Of a stretch of 64,000 nucleotides of DNA, positions 35,967 through 62,377 are shown in pieces (within the stretch, counting starts at the first letter, position 1; each line of letters begins with the position of its first letter). The notes under the pieces were generated by a model. The model saw only the letters and a list, made by a program, of their open reading frames with translations. It did no database searches and was not told the DNA's origin. The translations under genes were made by a program, and so were the position numbers. The DNA lies in NCBI GenBank assembly GCA_965206645.1, contig CBDBKE010000004.1:576001-640000 (forward strand), written 5' to 3'. Origin of the DNA: Terriglobia bacterium (GTDB taxonomy: Bacteria > Acidobacteriota > Terriglobia > JAJPHL01 > JAPKYU01).

Positions 35967-36401
35967 TTGAGATTGGATCTTCGTTTTCCCAGCGACCCCC
36001 GGCTGTTGCGCACAGTCCGCTGCCTGATTGGGGAAATGGCGGAGCATTGCGGCTTTGCTGAGGACGAAGCGCAGTTCATCATCCTGGCCGTGGATGAAGC
36101 TTGCGCCAACGTCATCCGCCATGCGTACCAGGGCCGCACAGACGGGGAAATCGGCCTCTCCTGCTCCGCCAAGGAGGACCGGATCGAGTTCCTCCTGGTG
36201 GACCAGGGACGGCCGCCGCGACCGGACAGCCTACAGCCGCGCACCCAGGAGGAAGTCCGACCCGGCGGATTGGGAACGCACTTGATTCGTTCCGTTATGG
36301 ACGAAGTTCGCTACCGGCCCAGTGAACAAGGGAACGAGCTGTTCTTGGCCAAATCTTTGCGCCCGCGCCGGCGCGTGGAAACTGGCGCTGTCACAGAATG
36401 A
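35967..36401 (+). CDS. RsbW/SpoIIAB-like anti-sigma factor serine kinase
   Basis: N-box DEACANVIRHAY, G1 DQG and G2 GGLG..IRSVMDEV. Confidence 0.88.
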   Translation: MRLDLRFPSDPRLLRTVRCLIGEMAEHCGFAEDEAQFIILAVDEACANVIRHAYQGRTDGEIGLSCSAKEDRIEFLLVDQGRPPRPDSLQPRTQEEVRPGGLGTHLIRSVMDEVRYRPSEQGNELFLAKSLRPRRRVETGAVTE

Positions 36402-36736
36402 GCATTCAGATCAAAGTCCGCAAAGAAGGCGGAACCTCCGTGATTGACGTGGTGGGTGACATTGACCTGTACTCCTCCCCGCAGGTGCGCCAAACCATTC
36501 TGGACGAGTTGAACCAGAAGAGCGGAGACCGCGTGCTGTTGAACCTGACCGGGGTCAAGTACGTTGACAGTTCCGGGGTCGCCTCGCTTGTCGAAGGGCT
36601 GCAGCTGGCGCGGAAGGCACAGATCCGTTTTGCGCTCTGCGGACTCAACAAAGCGCCGCGACAGGTGCTGGAGCTCACCCGACTGATCAAGGTCTTCGAC
36701 ATCTACGACACGTTGGAAGAGGCGCTGAAAGCTTAG
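36398..36736 (+). CDS. STAS anti-sigma factor antagonist (RsbV/SpoIIAA-like)
   Basis: GDIDLYSSP, YVDSSGV and LELTRL motifs; ATGA overlap with the kinase gene. Confidence 0.92.
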   Translation: MSIQIKVRKEGGTSVIDVVGDIDLYSSPQVRQTILDELNQKSGDRVLLNLTGVKYVDSSGVASLVEGLQLARKAQIRFALCGLNKAPRQVLELTRLIKVFDIYDTLEEALKA

Positions 36737-40216: not shown

Positions 40217-40558
40217 CTAGCGGCTTTGGCTGGCGGCGGAGACGGTGTCGTAAGCGGGAAAAACGGAGAGAAGGCGAACATCCTCCAGGACACGGCGCAG
40301 GCGGCCAGGCGGGACCACCAGGCGCAATTCACCGCCCTGGGCGACGGCGCTAGCCAGGCAGCGGGCAAGACAGCCGATGCCACGGCTGTCCACAGTGTGC
40401 GCCTCAGTCAGGTTGATCAGCACGACCAGGTTGCTCTTGACCGCCTCCAGCACGGTTTTGCGGATGTTATCGGCCATCCCCTGCTTTCCCCACAGGCGCA
40501 AGTCCCCCCGGAGATGGACCACCGCGAACGGACCGTCGTATTCCAACCGTACTTCCAT
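40217..40558 (-). CDS. STAS domain protein
   Basis: VHLRGDL, INLTEAHTVDSRGIG and LEDVRL motifs; alternative start TTG 40603. Confidence 0.8.
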   Translation of the reverse strand: MEVRLEYDGPFAVVHLRGDLRLWGKQGMADNIRKTVLEAVKSNLVVLINLTEAHTVDSRGIGCLARCLASAVAQGGELRLVVPPGRLRRVLEDVRLLSVFPAYDTVSAASQSR

Positions 40559-56470: not shown

Positions 56471-58177
56471 ATGGCGGAACGCAAACTACAGGTTATCCCC
56501 CTTGGCGGTCTGGGGGAGTTTGGTATGAACATGATGGCACTGCGCTACGGTGACGACATGATCGTCATTGACGCCGGCCTGATGTTCCCCGACGTCGAAT
56601 TGCTGGGCGTGGACTTGGTGATCCCGGACATCAGCTTCTTGCTGGAAAACCGGCAGCAGGTCCGGGCTCTGATTCTCACCCACTGCCACGAGGACCACGT
56701 CGGAGCAACGCCGTTCTTGCTGGCCGAGATGAATATGCCCGTGTACGGAACGGCATTCACTCTAGCCATGCTCGAGCGTCGGCTGGAAGAGCATGGGCTG
56801 CTCGAGCAGGTCGACCGGCACCAGGTGCGTTCTGGCGAAAGCGTGGAAATCGGACCATTCCAGATCCAGTTCATCCACGTCACTCACAGCACGGTAGATT
56901 GCGTGATGCTGGCGATCCGCACACCGCTCGGTGTGGTCGTGCACAGCGGCGATTTCAAGGTGGATCCCACACCCACTGACAACGAACTGTTTGACTTGCA
57001 CAGCGTGGCCGAGTGGGGCAAGCAGGGCGTGTTGGCGCTGTTCTCCGACTCGACCAACGTGGAGCGGTCCGGGTTCACGCCTTCGGAGCGGGCGGTACGC
57101 GGCGGCCTAGAGGAGATGTTTGCCGATGCCACCGGGCGCATACTGATTTCCTGCTTTTCCAGTTCGGTGCACAGGCTCCAACTGGTGGTGGACCTGGCTT
57201 CCCAGTATGACCGCAAGCTGGCCCTTTTCGGACGCAGCATGATGAACACCTCGGAGATCGCGCACCGCATGGGCTACCTGAAGATCCCCGACGGCCTACT
57301 GCTGCGGCCGGCGGACCTGTCCCAGACCAGCCGCAATCGAGTGGCGGCTTTGATCGCTGGCAGCCAAGGCGAGCCGATGTCGGCGCTGTCGAGGGCTGCA
57401 GTGAACAATCACCGGCACGCGGTTATTGAGGCTGGCGATTCTGTGGTGCTGTCCGCGCGCATCATCCCTGGCAACGAGAAGGCCATCTTTCGCATGATGG
57501 ACCACCTGTTCCGGCGCGGCGCCCATGTGGTCTACGAGGATGTCTCCTCGCGCCCGGTGCACGTTTCCGGGCACGGCAGCCAGGAGGAGCTGAAGCTGAT
57601 GCTAAATCTGGTGAAGCCGCGCTTCTTCATCCCCATCCATGGCGAGTACCGGCAGCTGTGCCGGCACGCCGAACTGGCTCAGCAGGTGCGTGGCGTTCCA
57701 GCTCGCCCCGGGGCTTCCGAGTCGGCGGCCGGAGGGCTGCAGGAGACTTTTGTGATCGAGAGCGGCGATGTTCTGGAGTTCGACGAGCGCGGTGCTCGCA
57801 AGGCGGGTCGGGTCACGGTAGGCCGGCATTGCATTGACTCCGGCTCAGTGGACGAGGTGGTGGAGGAGGTGGTGATCCGCGACCGCCGGCACCTTTCCGA
57901 GCAGGGCATCGTGCTGCCTATCCTGGCCATTGACAAGCACACCGGGAAGGTAGAAACACCCCCGGAGATTGTCACCCGCGGCTTCGCCATCGGCGAGCCA
58001 GATGGCTTCCTGGAGCCAGCGCGGCAGATCGTGCTGCGCACCTTGGAGAGTTCCAGCAACGAAGAGAAAGCCGACTACGGCGTTATCAAGGAGAAGATTC
58101 GCAGCGACCTGAAGCGGTTTATCCACAAGCAAACGGCCCGCCGCCCCCTCATCCTGCCCGTCATTCTAGAAGTATAA
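56471..58177 (+). CDS. rnj: Ribonuclease J
   Basis: PLGGLGEFGMN, THCHEDH, GDFK, GSQGEP, HVSGH and PIHGE motifs. Confidence 0.96.
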   Translation: MAERKLQVIPLGGLGEFGMNMMALRYGDDMIVIDAGLMFPDVELLGVDLVIPDISFLLENRQQVRALILTHCHEDHVGATPFLLAEMNMPVYGTAFTLAMLERRLEEHGLLEQVDRHQVRSGESVEIGPFQIQFIHVTHSTVDCVMLAIRTPLGVVVHSGDFKVDPTPTDNELFDLHSVAEWGKQGVLALFSDSTNVERSGFTPSERAVRGGLEEMFADATGRILISCFSSSVHRLQLVVDLASQYDRKLALFGRSMMNTSEIAHRMGYLKIPDGLLLRPADLSQTSRNRVAALIAGSQGEPMSALSRAAVNNHRHAVIEAGDSVVLSARIIPGNEKAIFRMMDHLFRRGAHVVYEDVSSRPVHVSGHGSQEELKLMLNLVKPRFFIPIHGEYRQLCRHAELAQQVRGVPARPGASESAAGGLQETFVIESGDVLEFDERGARKAGRVTVGRHCIDSGSVDEVVEEVVIRDRRHLSEQGIVLPILAIDKHTGKVETPPEIVTRGFAIGEPDGFLEPARQIVLRTLESSSNEEKADYGVIKEKIRSDLKRFIHKQTARRPLILPVILEV

Positions 58178-58340
58178 GTAGGGCTAGAGCTGTAAGTGAC
58201 GCGCTGCTTCGCGCAGGGCAGATCTCTGCTCCCGCAGGGGGTGTCGCTACATAGCCTGTAGTCGAGTTCAAACCCAGGCCGAGGAGAGGTCCCACGCATC
58301 ATTGGGGAAGCAGGGGGAAGCAAGCGGGGAAGCAGGCGGC

Positions 58341-58685
58341 TTAAGAAAAGCTGTGAATCCCCGCAGTTTCGTCGTCGTGAACTTCAAACACCGTATACAG
58401 CTTAGTGATCTGCAAGAGTTCATGCACCTCCTTGGTGAGATGCAGCAGTTTGAGCTGCCCACCCTGGTTGGTGACCGTAGCGAAGCAGCTCACGAGCTCG
58501 CCAGTCCCCGAGCTGTCGATGTAGCTGACATCAGACAGGTTCAGCAGGATTTTCCTTTCCCCGCTGTTGAACAGATCGCGGACTGTCTCGCGCAGAGTGG
58601 ACGAACCTTCGCCTAAAGTAATTCGACCGTTGATGTCCACCACCGTGACTCCGTTCACCTGGCGTGTAGTGACTTTGATTGACAT
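58341..58685 (-). CDS. STAS anti-sigma factor antagonist
   Basis: GRITLGEGS, YIDSSG and LLQITKLYTVF motifs. Confidence 0.92.
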   Translation of the reverse strand: MSIKVTTRQVNGVTVVDINGRITLGEGSSTLRETVRDLFNSGERKILLNLSDVSYIDSSGTGELVSCFATVTNQGGQLKLLHLTKEVHELLQITKLYTVFEVHDDETAGIHSFS

Positions 58686-58734
58686 CGCTAATCCTTCTCG
58701 CTTCCTTCTTTCTTAAGTCCCGTTCAAGAGTTAC

Positions 58735-60423
58735 TCAATACGGTGCGAGATTTCGGCAATGGCACTCGCCGACGGCAACGTAGTGTGCGGCCTCCGCGCC
58801 ATAGGTGACGTGCGCCTTGCCCAGCCCTTCCAGATAGGTCACCAGAAACTCAGGTTTCGCGGCGTTCTGGACTATGACCTCCAGCGCCCGCACCAACTTC
58901 TTCTCCTGCTGGGCCATGTCCGTGTTCTGGAACAGTCCCTTCACCTGCGGGTAGCGCTTGAACAGCTCACCATAGAAAGTAGAAGCTAAATCTTTACCAT
59001 TCGAGCTCATCCTCTGTAGGTTGTCCTGCAGCAGCTTTGATTGGTAATGGGGTCGCAGAGCTCCCGATATCTCCATTGCGATCTCTTTCTGTGCCGCGAA
59101 GATATCGGTCAGCGTCCGCCGATACTGCTTCCCCCAGAGCTGGTGATTCGCTACAGTGTCGACGAGTTCGGCGCTTATCAACAGGTCATCTCCGAGTCGA
59201 ACAATTTTTCCTAACACCACCGCGCGAACCTTCAAGTCTCGCCCGACAGTTTGGGGTTGGATCTCTTGGCCCTTGTAACGGAGGACTGCGGTTCGGGATA
59301 TCACCTTGAGACTGGGCAACTGGGAAAGGCTGCTGATGATGTTTTCGGTGATCCCGTCAGTGAGGTATTCCATCTCAGGATCGGCACTGAGATTGGTGAA
59401 CGGTAAAATGGCAAGCGAATCGACGCCCTCGCCACGAGCCTCAGTTCGCTGGCGGGTCGTGCACGGCGCCCGGGAACGTCCTGTGCGAGGCTTTGTGCTC
59501 ACCACAGCGCTTCGTCCGGAGTCGCTATCGCGTTTCAGACGCTTCAGGTCCGCCCGAAGGTCAGAAGTGGTCTGGTAGCGCAACTCGCACTCTTTCTCCA
59601 GCGCTCTGTTGATGATCTCCTCTAGCTTGAGCGGAAGTTTAGAATTTATCTGTAGGGGCGCTATCGGCGCCCTGTTAAGAATCGCTTCGAGGACGACTCC
59701 AGAGGTCTTCCCAGTGAAAGCCGGGCGCCCCGTCGCCATTTCGTAAAGCATCACGCCGAAGGAAAAAAGATCCGAGCGCGCATCAACTTCCTCGCCACGC
59801 ACTTGCTCTGGCGACATGTAGGCGACTGTGCCGAGAGTGACGCCGGGGCTGGTGAGATGCTTCTCGACGGAGGAGTAGGTGCTCGAATCCGAGACTTGCC
59901 CTGCTCCACCCACCATCTGCCGTTGGGCCGCCACCTTTGCTAGCCCGAAGTCCAGGGTTTTGGCTTGTCCCTGCTCGTTAACAAAAATATTTGCTGGCTT
60001 GATGTCCCGATGCGTGATTCCCTTCGCATGGGCCGCCTCCAGCCCGTCGCTGACCTGAATGGCCAGCTCAACTAATTCCTCGGTCTTGAATGGCTTGCCC
60101 GCAATGCGGTGCTTGAGCGTTTGTCCTTCCAGCAGCGCCATGGCGATGAACGGCTGGCCCTCATATTCATCAATTTCGTAAATGGTGCAGATGTTGGGAT
60201 GAGTCAGCGCCGCAGTGGCACGGGCCTCACGGAGGAATCGGTCAAGCATTTGACGGTCCTTAGAAAACTCCTCGGCCAGGCACTTCAGGGCGACGTGGCG
60301 AGCGAGGATCGTGTCTTCGGCCTTGTACACAACTCCCATGCCACCGGCGCCCAGCTTCTCCAGGATGCGGTAGTGGGAAATCGTCTTCCCAGTCATGGGG
60401 AGCGCCTTGTTCCGGTCCTCCAT
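58735..60423 (-). CDS. Hanks-type Ser/Thr kinase + TolB_N-like domain + C-terminally truncated globin
   Basis: Kinase motifs GAGGMG, VALK, HRDIKPAN, DFG and GTVAYMSPE; then SLAILPFTNLS..YLTDGITE; then TFYGELFKRYP..LF..QQEKKL..LGKAH..YG..HY. Start may be 60396. Confidence 0.85.
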   Translation of the reverse strand: MEDRNKALPMTGKTISHYRILEKLGAGGMGVVYKAEDTILARHVALKCLAEEFSKDRQMLDRFLREARATAALTHPNICTIYEIDEYEGQPFIAMALLEGQTLKHRIAGKPFKTEELVELAIQVSDGLEAAHAKGITHRDIKPANIFVNEQGQAKTLDFGLAKVAAQRQMVGGAGQVSDSSTYSSVEKHLTSPGVTLGTVAYMSPEQVRGEEVDARSDLFSFGVMLYEMATGRPAFTGKTSGVVLEAILNRAPIAPLQINSKLPLKLEEIINRALEKECELRYQTTSDLRADLKRLKRDSDSGRSAVVSTKPRTGRSRAPCTTRQRTEARGEGVDSLAILPFTNLSADPEMEYLTDGITENIISSLSQLPSLKVISRTAVLRYKGQEIQPQTVGRDLKVRAVVLGKIVRLGDDLLISAELVDTVANHQLWGKQYRRTLTDIFAAQKEIAMEISGALRPHYQSKLLQDNLQRMSSNGKDLASTFYGELFKRYPQVKGLFQNTDMAQQEKKLVRALEVIVQNAAKPEFLVTYLEGLGKAHVTYGAEAAHYVAVGECHCRNLAPY

Positions 60424-60618
60424 GGAATGAAGTTCATAGCTGCCTTAGATGCGGAGATGGGCGGGCAGGATTCACCAGGAATTTTCTGAACTCCCCGGAT
60501 AGCAGTGCTCCCTAAGACTCGCTCACCTGCCCTGAGGATCGCATCCGCGACACTAAACCATGGTGGATAGCCGCATCGTTCACGAAACCCAATATAATCT
60601 GACGATTGTGGCGGGCAG

Positions 60619-61173
60619 TTAGACGGCGGCTCGGGAGTACTGCCGGGGTTTGAACTCCGGCTTCGTGCCCAGTCCCAGCGAGAGTATGTTGAAAAAGTTG
60701 ATGCAGCCGGTCATCACCACGGCCTCCAAGATCTGCTCGTCGGTGAAGCCGTGTTGGCGCAATGCCTCAATGTCCTTCCCGTCCGTTTCGGGCAGCCGCT
60801 CGGTGAGTTTGAGCGCGAAATCCAGCAGGGCCTTGTCCGCTTCGGAAATATCAGCGTAGTGATGATCCACCGCCACCTGCTCCAGCTCCGGGTCGGTCAC
60901 ACCCATCGTTCGCATCATCTCGCAATGAATGGTCACGCAATAGGTGCTCAGGCGCGCCGCCGAACAAACCAGGGCGATGGACTCCTTCTGCCGCCGGGAG
61001 AGGGCGCCTTCCTTGAGCAACACGGTCGAGAGCAACTGGACTTCGGCCTCGATGAAATCAGGTCGCAGGCCCTGGGCGCGGAACAAATTGGGGATCAACC
61101 CGAACTTTTCTCGCAGAGCTGCGAAGGGGGCAAAGGTCTGTTCGCTCAGCTCTCCTTCACGTAGGAAGCTCAT
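60619..61173 (-). CDS. AhpD/CMD-family peroxidase-related protein
   Basis: FGLIPNLFR, LSRRQKE, STYCVTIH, ALLDFALKLT and LRQHGFTDEQILE motifs. Confidence 0.85.
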   Translation of the reverse strand: MSFLREGELSEQTFAPFAALREKFGLIPNLFRAQGLRPDFIEAEVQLLSTVLLKEGALSRRQKESIALVCSAARLSTYCVTIHCEMMRTMGVTDPELEQVAVDHHYADISEADKALLDFALKLTERLPETDGKDIEALRQHGFTDEQILEAVVMTGCINFFNILSLGLGTKPEFKPRQYSRAAV

Positions 61174-61409
61174 CAAGGCTCCTTCATGGCGGTGCGGATT
61201 TTGGCCATGATCCGCTCAGAAATGCCCGTGGGCAGCTCGAAACACTGGCTATTGGTGACGATCCTCAGGGTTTTGCGCGTGGAGTCGACCAGGACCTGGC
61301 AGGTATGGCAGTGGTCCAGATGGATCTCCAGCTCCTGCCGGAGTTCGGCCACCACCTGGTCGTCCAGGTAGTTCCCCAATTCAGCCAACAGGTCACGACA
61401 ATTAAGCAC
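61173..61409 (-). CDS. Soluble zinc-finger (zf-HC2/ZAS) anti-sigma factor
   Basis: C..LGNYLD..HLDHCHTC; overlaps both the sigma stop and the AhpD start. Confidence 0.88.
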   Translation of the reverse strand: MLNCRDLLAELGNYLDDQVVAELRQELEIHLDHCHTCQVLVDSTRKTLRIVTNSQCFELPTGISERIMAKIRTAMKEP

Positions 61410-62046
61410 GGCTTCCCTCCCTCCGCTTACGCATGAAGCGCGGAGCCAGCGCCTCACGCAGCATCAGGCGACCGCGAAGCAGGCGCGTCTTCAAGGCGGG
61501 AGCGGTTAGCCCCAGGGCGGCCACCGCCTCCTCGGTGGAGAGCTCTTCCAGGTCGCGCAGCATGATCACCACACGATACTTGAGAGGAAGCTTCATCAGT
61601 TCTCCCTCCACCAGCTCACGCATCTCTGCTTTAGAGTACGCCTGTTCGGGACTGTCCTCCCAAGCCTGCACCTGGCGCGGGCGAAACCCCTGATCGCTGT
61701 CCGTCTCCGGCTCATCCAGGCTCTCCATGCTCTTGCGCTTGCGCAGCTGCTGCAACCCCTCGTTGATGGCGATGCGTGTCAGCCAGGTGGAAAACTTGGC
61801 GGCTGCCTGGAATTCCCCGATGTGCCGGAAGGCCTTCAGGAAAGTGTTCTGCGTACTGTCCTCGGCGTCCTCGCGATTGCCGGTGATGCCAATCAGCGTG
61901 CGGTAGACGCGTCCCTGGTGGCGCCGAACCAGGCCTTCGAAAGCGTCCGTGTCCCCGCTCTGCACTCGAGACACCAGACTGGCGTCCTCATCCACCTGCG
62001 GAGCGCTCTTCGCCGTTAGTTCTGCTTGGTTCTTCGGAACCGCCAT
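61402..62046 (-). CDS. ECF RNA polymerase sigma factor
   Basis: DAEDSTQNTFLKAF, FSTWLTRIAIN, LPLKYR and KTRLLRGR motifs. Confidence 0.93.
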   Translation of the reverse strand: MAVPKNQAELTAKSAPQVDEDASLVSRVQSGDTDAFEGLVRRHQGRVYRTLIGITGNREDAEDSTQNTFLKAFRHIGEFQAAAKFSTWLTRIAINEGLQQLRKRKSMESLDEPETDSDQGFRPRQVQAWEDSPEQAYSKAEMRELVEGELMKLPLKYRVVIMLRDLEELSTEEAVAALGLTAPALKTRLLRGRLMLREALAPRFMRKRREGSRA

Positions 62047-62377
62047 GGGGTTTCTTCGACTGTTCCGGATGACAATACACACCTCCACGCCCGGAATCGA
62101 CCCGGAAACAAGCACCTCAGTTTGACACAGGTTGCCGGCTGGAAGATTCACTTTCTTCCCTTTGCCGGCAGGAAAGACTCGCTGGCGCCAAGCTGCAGAT
62201 CAGGGGCAGAAAGCAGCGGATAGGGGGAAGAAAATTTCCCGATCTTTGGCCGTGGATCAAAGCGTATAACGAATGGCACCTGCGGTCATTTCCGAGCGCG
62301 CCTGCACTTGCCACCCTCCGCGGCAGCCCAGTATGCTGGGGAAGGGCAATTCTCCTTGAGCCTTCGGGACGCATTCC

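Follow-up and report, generated by a model that had tools for sequence, protein, structure and literature searches.

Does a gene near the end of a 64,000-nucleotide stretch of acidobacterial DNA encode a serine/threonine (Ser/Thr) kinase that is controlled by a haem globin, and is this particular copy still complete? The stretch (contig CBDBKE010000004.1 of the Terriglobia bacterium assembly GCA_965206645.1; hereafter, at its full length, the window) carries on its minus strand a single open reading frame (ORF), 58735..60423, in which an earlier note had recognised a Ser/Thr kinase fused to a globin. Our reading, to which we assign a probability of roughly 0.6, is that the intact form of this protein, present in close relatives, is a haem-globin-regulated Hanks kinase, possibly acting on the STAS protein encoded next to it, and that the sensor of the window copy is probably crippled. 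The gene and its upstream flank are divided as follows:

58735..60423, minus strand: whole ORF, 562 amino acids (aa), likely 553 aa from Met10 (60396); Hanks kinase, TolB_N-like domain and truncated globin
59566..60372, minus strand: protein kinase domain, aa 18-286 (Pkinase E 5.9e-46), with all catalytic motifs
59056..59424, minus strand: TolB_N-like domain (SLAILPF...), aa ~334-456, its final stretch homologous to a paralogue with TPR repeats
58762..59043, minus strand: globin domain, aa 461-554, comprising helices A to F plus the beginning of G, with Tyr484, Phe498, Gln506 and His538
58735..58761, minus strand: eight unrelated codons (HCRNLAPY) and the stop, the putative scar of a deletion of ~107 base pairs (bp), from homologue alignments and contigs
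60424..60525, minus strand: upstream non-coding stretch, 95% conserved in a genome of the same genus (G003) together with the 5' part of the kinase

Met10 is the start indicated by the homologues and by a public gene call, and the resulting 553-aa form is identical to a sequence in a public collection. PF00069 (Pkinase) matched aa 18-286 with 157.4 bits against a cut-off of 31.7 in the Pfam scan, and the Gly-rich loop (GAGGMG), the Lys motif (VALK), the HRD motif (HRDIKPAN), DFG and the APE motif (SPE) are all readable in the translation. By profile and motifs the product is thus classed as a Hanks-type Ser/Thr kinase, and the intact kinase domain described in the earlier note was recovered in full. 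The label TolB_N-like, given there to the following domain, is less firmly based: the domain is 58% identical to its counterpart in a paralogue from the same genome, but its match to PF04052 is below threshold (E 0.009, 16.6 bits against a cut-off of 22.4), as is that of the paralogue's domain (E 0.0018). The highest Kyte-Doolittle mean of any 19-aa window is 1.15, so that no such window is hydrophobic enough for a membrane helix and the protein should be cytoplasmic, a setting in which a haem globin makes sense. No reductase domain was found in the Pfam scan of the protein. The conserved stretch upstream of the gene (60424..60525) is probably the promoter region of the cassette itself; a promoter and terminator scan of 58100-60700 returned nothing on the gene's strand and no sigma-70-like site.

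The globin is of the 3-on-3, F/M (flavohaemoglobin/Vitreoscilla, Hell's Gate globin I-like) type. PF00042 (Globin) matched aa 482-557 with E 1.8e-7 (32.1 bits, cut-off 22; Pfam), and in a PDB sequence search the last 121 residues aligned with the Hell's Gate globin I (HGbI) chains 3ubc/3s1i (E 5e-15), followed by weaker matches to a Campylobacter single-domain globin, flavohaemoglobins, Vitreoscilla haemoglobin and a globin-Roadblock/LC7 fusion. The alignment with 3ubc/3s1i assigns Tyr484 to B10, Phe498 to CD1, Gln506 to E7 and His538 to F8. In 47 aligned relatives there is no variation in the columns FY (B9/B10), CD1 Phe, C2 Pro and F8 His, and E7 Gln is kept in at least 90%; this conservation of F8 His, B10 Tyr, CD1 Phe and E7 Gln argues for haem. 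HGbI is also the nearest solved structure by fold: an AlphaFold 2 (AF2) model built for P0157, an orthologous C-terminal piece (191 aa; mean predicted local distance difference test score, pLDDT, 89.8) gave O2-bound HGbI (3s1i_A) as the best Foldseek match, with a template modelling (TM) score of 0.92 on the target, a root-mean-square deviation of 1.2 A and 34% identity. In this model the TolB_N-like domain contributes three strands, after which a single continuous helix (residues 37-89) leads into the globin. Hence the assignments of B10, CD1, E7 and F8 made in the earlier note proved correct in both the alignment and the columns, its Vitreoscilla/flavohaemoglobin typing agrees with the PDB search and with Foldseek, and the two checks it proposed, by profile and by structure, came out in favour of a globin (PF00042 above cut-off; TM 0.92 to 3s1i for the orthologue model). 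PF11563 (Protoglobin) gave no match in the window protein at E <= 1, and in a further protein (P0009) only one of E 0.037, below cut-off. The Pfam families found in 91 multi-domain relatives of this globin include MCPsignal (17), PAS_4 (13), CheW (6) and HAMP_2 (5). Three giant proteins of 2352-3690 aa (P0004, P0005 and P0018) carry 5 to 14 tandem globins of the same type.

In the window, however, the globin is not complete. Its match covers profile positions 2-89 of 117, against 2-115 (48.6 bits) for the homologue P0002, so the domain is truncated at its C-terminus. Homologues of 583 aa (88-94% identity) continue after ...AHY(D/V)AVGEC with LIHALAVTAGQLWNDELAVAWSEVY.NAAGIMKRSA.., whereas the window protein reads GEC, then HCRNLAPY and a stop. 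Compared with them it lacks ~38 residues (LIHALAV...KRSAAT), in which helix G ends and the whole of helix H lies; the 583-aa forms have the full set of helices A-H and the window copy stops seven residues into helix G. The HCRNLAPY end is common to three distinct public sequences of 553 aa. A second PF00042 match able to supply the missing part was searched for in the genome and not found. The missing part survives as DNA in G003, in comparison with which the window looks like the product of a deletion of ~107 bp between GAGTGCC (Glu-Cys-Leu) and GAGCGCC (Arg-Ser-Ala, near the stop); owing to divergence of the 3' end, we can only infer these boundaries, from the G003 remnant alone. In apomyoglobin the folding core is made up of helices A, G and H, and as helix H is part of the folding core of globins, the clipped domain most probably no longer holds haem in a stable pocket. 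In the AF2 model of the clipped domain, helices A-G are still drawn (pLDDT 82), a value that says nothing on stability. The intact haem sensor that the earlier note had envisaged thus does not apply to the window copy, which has lost helix H and the remainder of helix G, and the gene would be either a kinase without its input or an early pseudogene. Private to this copy are, in addition, substitutions at four positions that are invariant elsewhere, E96A, I156T, R321C and D549V (sites 60137, 59957, 59463 and the 58777 region, respectively), of which E96A and I156T adjoin the catalytic motifs of the kinase without falling within them.

The G003 remnant runs from kinase codon ~191 straight, and out of frame, into ...GECLIHALA..., ~10 bp from the breakpoint of the window. 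The breakpoints of two independent deletions thereby lie within ~10 bp of each other at ...GTCGG(C/T)GAGTGCC (window 58762-58771; L096 ~1530-1545), the window having lost sequence after that site and G003 ~1 kb before it. This coincidence could be due to chance or to a local deletion hot spot.

Neither the fusion nor the truncation is an assembly artefact. For this, Logan contigs of four runs from four studies (X1, X4, X5 and X6) were aligned to 58300-60500. One X1 contig spans 58300-60361 with zero differing letters, and X1 may be the sample from which the window came; the junction at ~59040, the point at which the earlier note feared a chimera, is bridged by listed contigs of three of the four runs (X1; X4, 58761-59149; X5, 58929-59089), and the listed X6 pieces end at 59029. 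The stop region into the STAS gene is bridged by contigs of X4 and X5 (58578-58790) and X6 (58642-58874) with one differing letter each, and the clipped 3' end is present in contigs of all four runs. At E96A, I156T and R321C, the X1 contigs agree with the window and all covering X4-X6 contigs have the other letter. Ahead of the STAS start, the spacer of the window contains 11 additional bases (58692-58702), a near-repeat of the purine-rich stretch preceding the STAS start codon, that are absent from the contigs of all four runs, including those of the run that is otherwise a perfect match to the window; they reflect either an error of assembly or a difference between strains in the ribosome-binding region.

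The origin of the fusion can be read from a paralogue of 775 aa in the same genome (L004 487..2814), which contains Pkinase, the sub-threshold TolB_N and many TPR families. Between Met10 and residue ~456 (...EIS.ALR) of the window protein the two share 54% identity, and there the similarity ends. Counterparts of the paralogue with 62-63% identity occur as 785-aa open frames in three of five related genomes searched, all of the same genus, and a fourth related genome has a counterpart of 782 aa. Among 87 other loci with the end of the TolB_N-like domain, 57 continue into a TPR region like the paralogue's, 19 are associated with a kinase and none with a globin; this comparison set was gathered by scanning public-genome contigs and metagenomes with patterns from the TolB_N-like end and consists of ordinary TolB_N-like proteins. 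Since homology to the paralogue extends to ~456 and gives way to TPR repeats there, and since 57 of the 87 loci have TPR and none a globin, it is well supported that the globin replaced the TPR tail in a duplicate gene. A domain swap of this kind had been put forward in the earlier note.

The architecture appears, from the collections searched, to be found only in one small clade, in which most copies are damaged. Using HMMER with the globin piece against 1.84 billion representatives, 2626 matches were obtained at E <= 0.001, and among the 150 listed only P0001, a member of the window's own cluster, has a kinase. Among 42 long proteins with the globin profile (523-2000 aa), only P0002 carries Pkinase, the others being MCP/PAS/HAMP-globins, CheW-globins and flavohaemoglobin-like proteins; independent kinase-globin fusions of ~334-523 aa with a distant globin lie outside the reach of this long-protein search and of the first protein search, and would be visible in HMMER only among the 150 matches listed. 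A globin of this type occurs in 29 of 401 genomes of the class. Compared by frame length alone, the open frame around the window's match measures 569 aa and those around the other 32 matches 91-422 aa. The window's junction and globin piece gave 99 pattern matches and no relatives among genome contigs. In the ESM Atlas, the whole protein led to kinase clusters only and the globin part had no usable match, a result with no bearing on novelty.

Two close homologues were returned by the first protein search and further ones came from their cluster, so that the same fusion, including its 583-aa forms, is present in homologues, the point on which the earlier note had wanted its proposal checked. 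Six distinct full-length sequences of 583 aa (P0002, P0154, P0156, P0160, P0161 and P0164) are 88-94% identical to the window protein. Among 20 aligned protein versions, these six are full length, three have the clipped end of the window, P0155 (99% identical to the window protein) ends ahead of the globin, one shifts frame where the globin begins, P0001 is without the TolB_N-like domain in frame, and the remaining versions are C-terminal pieces of 150-368 aa. Frameshifts introduced in long-read assembly may account for some of the short versions. In a distant lineage with 66-72% identity, seen as pieces of 168-198 aa, the same junction and the full globin are kept, and in the intact relatives the mean pairwise identity is 93.0% for globin helices A-G and 94.5% for the kinase domain. 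Repeated independent breakage in close relatives may be a warning of weak selection on the fusion. Related genomes also contain short frames of 166-225 aa (G001:C389:2865-3329, G004:C7:12313-12798 and G005:C695:1-552) that match only kinase residues 1 to 155-186 at 67-74% identity, and these may be further remnants or contig-end fragments.

The genes around the fusion are the following:

58341..58685, minus strand: single-domain STAS protein of the anti-sigma-factor-antagonist type, 114 aa (STAS E 3.7e-15), with a DSSG motif
60619-61176, minus strand: CMD/AhpD-like protein, directly upstream of the kinase-globin gene
61173-61457, minus strand: zf-HC2 anti-sigma factor, its frame overlapping the sigma factor frame
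61402-62151, minus strand: extracytoplasmic function (ECF) sigma factor, upstream of the kinase-globin gene

The STAS gene starts 50 bp after the kinase-globin stop, and its product matches PF01740 with 56 bits (cut-off 22.6) and contains IDSSGTG; in SpoIIAA/RsbV the serine of the DSSG motif is the phospho-site. A comparison of the last 14 kb of the window with 18 kb surrounding the remnant in G003 gave just two common blocks, 59850-60525 (95%; the 5' part of the kinase and ~130 bp upstream) and 58333-58701 (91%; the STAS gene), so that the conserved unit is kinase-globin plus STAS and not the sigma, anti-sigma and CMD genes. The two genes are neighbours in G003 as well, although the flanks of the cassette there are not syntenic with those in the window. 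Two near-identical tandem copies of an insertion sequence (IS)-type transposase (305 and 309 aa; G003 L109 5263-7278) lie 2-4 kb from the remnant cassette. A CMD domain fused to a globin was seen in one of the 91 multi-domain globin relatives, a thin hint of a redox link.

In the genome as a whole, eight STAS, seven HATPase_c_2 (RsbW-type) and eight SpoIIE matches were counted, a rich set of partner-switching modules. An RsbW-type kinase adjoins three of the seven other STAS matches, and none lies beside the STAS gene at 58341-58685. Elsewhere in the window, a canonical RsbW-type kinase (HATPase_c_2) is directly followed by a STAS gene at 35985-36724, and a further STAS match lies at 40232-40477. 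A split RsbR-like protein, with the globin and the downstream STAS protein as its two halves, was considered and rejected: the globin is of the F/M type, and there is no STAS among the 25 of 39 families listed for the globin's relatives. A predicted complex between the STAS protein and the kinase domain (residues 1-290 of the 553-aa form) scored 0.01 (mark 0.32) and carries no weight either way.

In the intact form, haem would be bound through His F8 of the globin, and O2, NO or CO entering a Tyr-B10/Gln-E7 pocket like that of HGbI would change the globin. This change would pass along the continuous helix that joins the globin A helix to the TolB_N-like domain and set the activity of the kinase, which in turn might phosphorylate the adjacent STAS protein, the only one of the neighbourhood that lacks an RsbW-type kinase, and so feed a gas or redox signal into partner switching. 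The STAS protein is the likeliest substrate on account of its adjacency, the lack of an RsbW-type kinase beside it and the analogy with PknD; ligand-regulated kinase activity is, for any member of the clade, something we purely infer. A bolder version, which we put forward tentatively and hold to be rather doubtful, is that the 583-aa proteins are the first haem-globin-regulated Hanks Ser/Thr kinases, switched by O2, NO or CO, and that they phosphorylate the co-inherited STAS protein in place of an RsbW-type kinase, thereby bringing a gas signal into sigma-factor partner switching.

Several observations weigh against a haem-regulated kinase that has lost its sensor in the window. As only six of the 20 protein versions are full length and G003, of the same genus, keeps a mere remnant, the whole family may be dispensable or decaying. 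The AF2 prediction of helices A-G at pLDDT 82 suggests no collapse of the clipped domain. HGbI, the closest solved relative, is a stand-alone globin and not a sensor. Finally, the STAS gene of G003 is intact (86% aa identity, ratio of non-synonymous to synonymous substitution rates ~0.44) while its kinase-globin neighbour is destroyed, so the STAS protein does not depend on this kinase. Carried further, the first of these points would make the entire kinase-globin family, intact copies included, a short-lived accident without a selected sensor function that is being lost by repeated deletions. In line with this, 14 of the 20 versions fall short of 583 aa, with at least six different kinds of breakage, G003 holds its remnant out of frame, six other genomes of the family gave no match to the clipped globin piece (the full globin being matched only in G003), the surroundings of the cassette are non-syntenic with two IS copies near it in G003, and the window copy has its four private substitutions. 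We nevertheless regard this account as unlikely, because six distinct sequences of 88-94% identity run at full length without a stop, the globin is as conserved in them as the kinase domain, the haem-pocket residues are invariant, the lineage at 66-72% identity retains the same junction and the full globin, and some of the fragments may be artefacts of assembly or gene calling.

A comparably small chance is given to the clipped allele being a working haem sensor after all, or to the truncation being adaptive, for example by locking the kinase in one state. The allele persists in three distinct sequences and in contigs of four studies, its upstream frame is open, AF2 keeps helices A-G, and the haem-contact residues up to F8 are all retained together with the start of helix G; yet helix H and most of helix G are gone, which, given how globins fold, makes haem retention unlikely, the 99%-identical P0155 is cut even earlier, before the globin, and private substitutions have arisen at invariant positions of both kinase and globin. 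It is still less probable that the globin, rather than sensing a ligand, serves as an enzyme or an O2/NO buffer, or as a dimerisation scaffold that needs no haem, in the manner of the RsbR N-domain. The solved structures closest to it are stand-alone globins and flavohaemoglobins with dioxygenase chemistry, and signalling proteins with non-haem globin folds are described in PMC7475203, but the conserved F8 His, B10 Tyr, CD1 Phe and E7 Gln argue for haem, a reductase domain is lacking, and the same type of globin has repeatedly been fused to MCP, PAS, HAMP and CheW modules. A chimera or other assembly error as the source of the fusion or of its end can practically be dismissed: the 11 extra bases at 58692-58702, at odds with the contigs of all four runs, speak for it, and against it stand the X1 contig over 58300-60361 without another letter, the listed contigs of X1, X4 and X5 that bridge 59040, the bridging of the stop region in all four runs and the same fusion in at least 15 further public sequences. 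We therefore keep to an intact haem-globin-regulated kinase in the clade and a crippled sensor in the window.

If this reading is true, it would add a new output class to haem globin sensors, a eukaryote-like Ser/Thr kinase, and a new kind of input to Hanks kinases. Characterised bacterial haem gas sensors signal through His kinases, cyclases, chemoreceptors or STAS domains, and the signals of Hanks kinases are mostly unknown. The clade offers natural dissection mutants, without helix H (the window), without the TolB_N-like domain (P0001) and as a remnant (G003). The window copy would be the wrong one to express; the 583-aa homologues are the candidates, with the clipped allele as a natural control. 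The architecture is of interest, but the specimen in the window is damaged and the family shows signs of weak selection.

No description of a kinase-globin fusion was found in full-text literature searches or in the passages of two globin surveys available to us, subscription papers and supplements lying outside this scope, in agreement with the earlier note, which knew of no characterised example of the architecture. Globin-coupled sensors have an N-terminal globin of the sensor family and a C-terminal output (PMC7475203), and among such systems AfGcHK couples O2 binding to a protein kinase and the Vibrio stressosome links a globin to STAS signalling (PMC7475203; PMC4976288). The window protein shares with them (HemAT, DosC/YddV, AfGcHK and the Vibrio haem RsbR) the fusion of a haem globin to a signalling output. 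In contrast to them, its globin is of the F/M type (PF00042) and not of the sensor/protoglobin family, the domain order is reversed (kinase aa 18-286, globin aa 461-554), and a Hanks Ser/Thr kinase takes the place of the His kinase, cyclase or MCP as output. As it has neither a sensor-family globin nor an N-terminal one, it falls outside the globin-coupled sensors, even though its mode of action would be similar, and the term globin-coupled used in the earlier note does not fit in its defined sense.

Closest in sequence and fold among solved proteins is HGbI of Methylacidiphilum infernorum (3s1i/3ubc), with the same Tyr-B10/Gln-E7/His-F8 pocket; it differs in standing alone, and the window copy in being without helix H. 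A fusion of this globin type to a signalling domain, Roadblock/LC7, is known from HGbRL of the same organism (3wfw; PMC4476040), in which the globin is N-terminal and there is no kinase. On the kinase side, the nearest architecture is that of the acidobacterial Pkinase-TolB_N-like-TPR kinases, represented by the paralogue (L004 487..2814), which is 54% identical over kinase, linker and TolB_N-like domain and, like the window protein, has no membrane segment; its TPR tail of ~320 aa is replaced by a globin of ~125 aa, of which ~95 aa are left in the window. A precedent for the proposed output is PknD of M. tuberculosis, a Hanks kinase reported to phosphorylate the anti-anti-sigma STAS homologue Rv0516c (PMC1847690). 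PknD is a membrane receptor with a beta-propeller sensor, whereas the kinase-STAS link at our locus is suggested by gene adjacency alone. The animal haem-regulated eIF2alpha kinase (HRI) is likewise a haem-controlled Ser/Thr kinase of the same superfamily; it is eukaryotic, has no globin domain and senses haem concentration, not a gas ligand.

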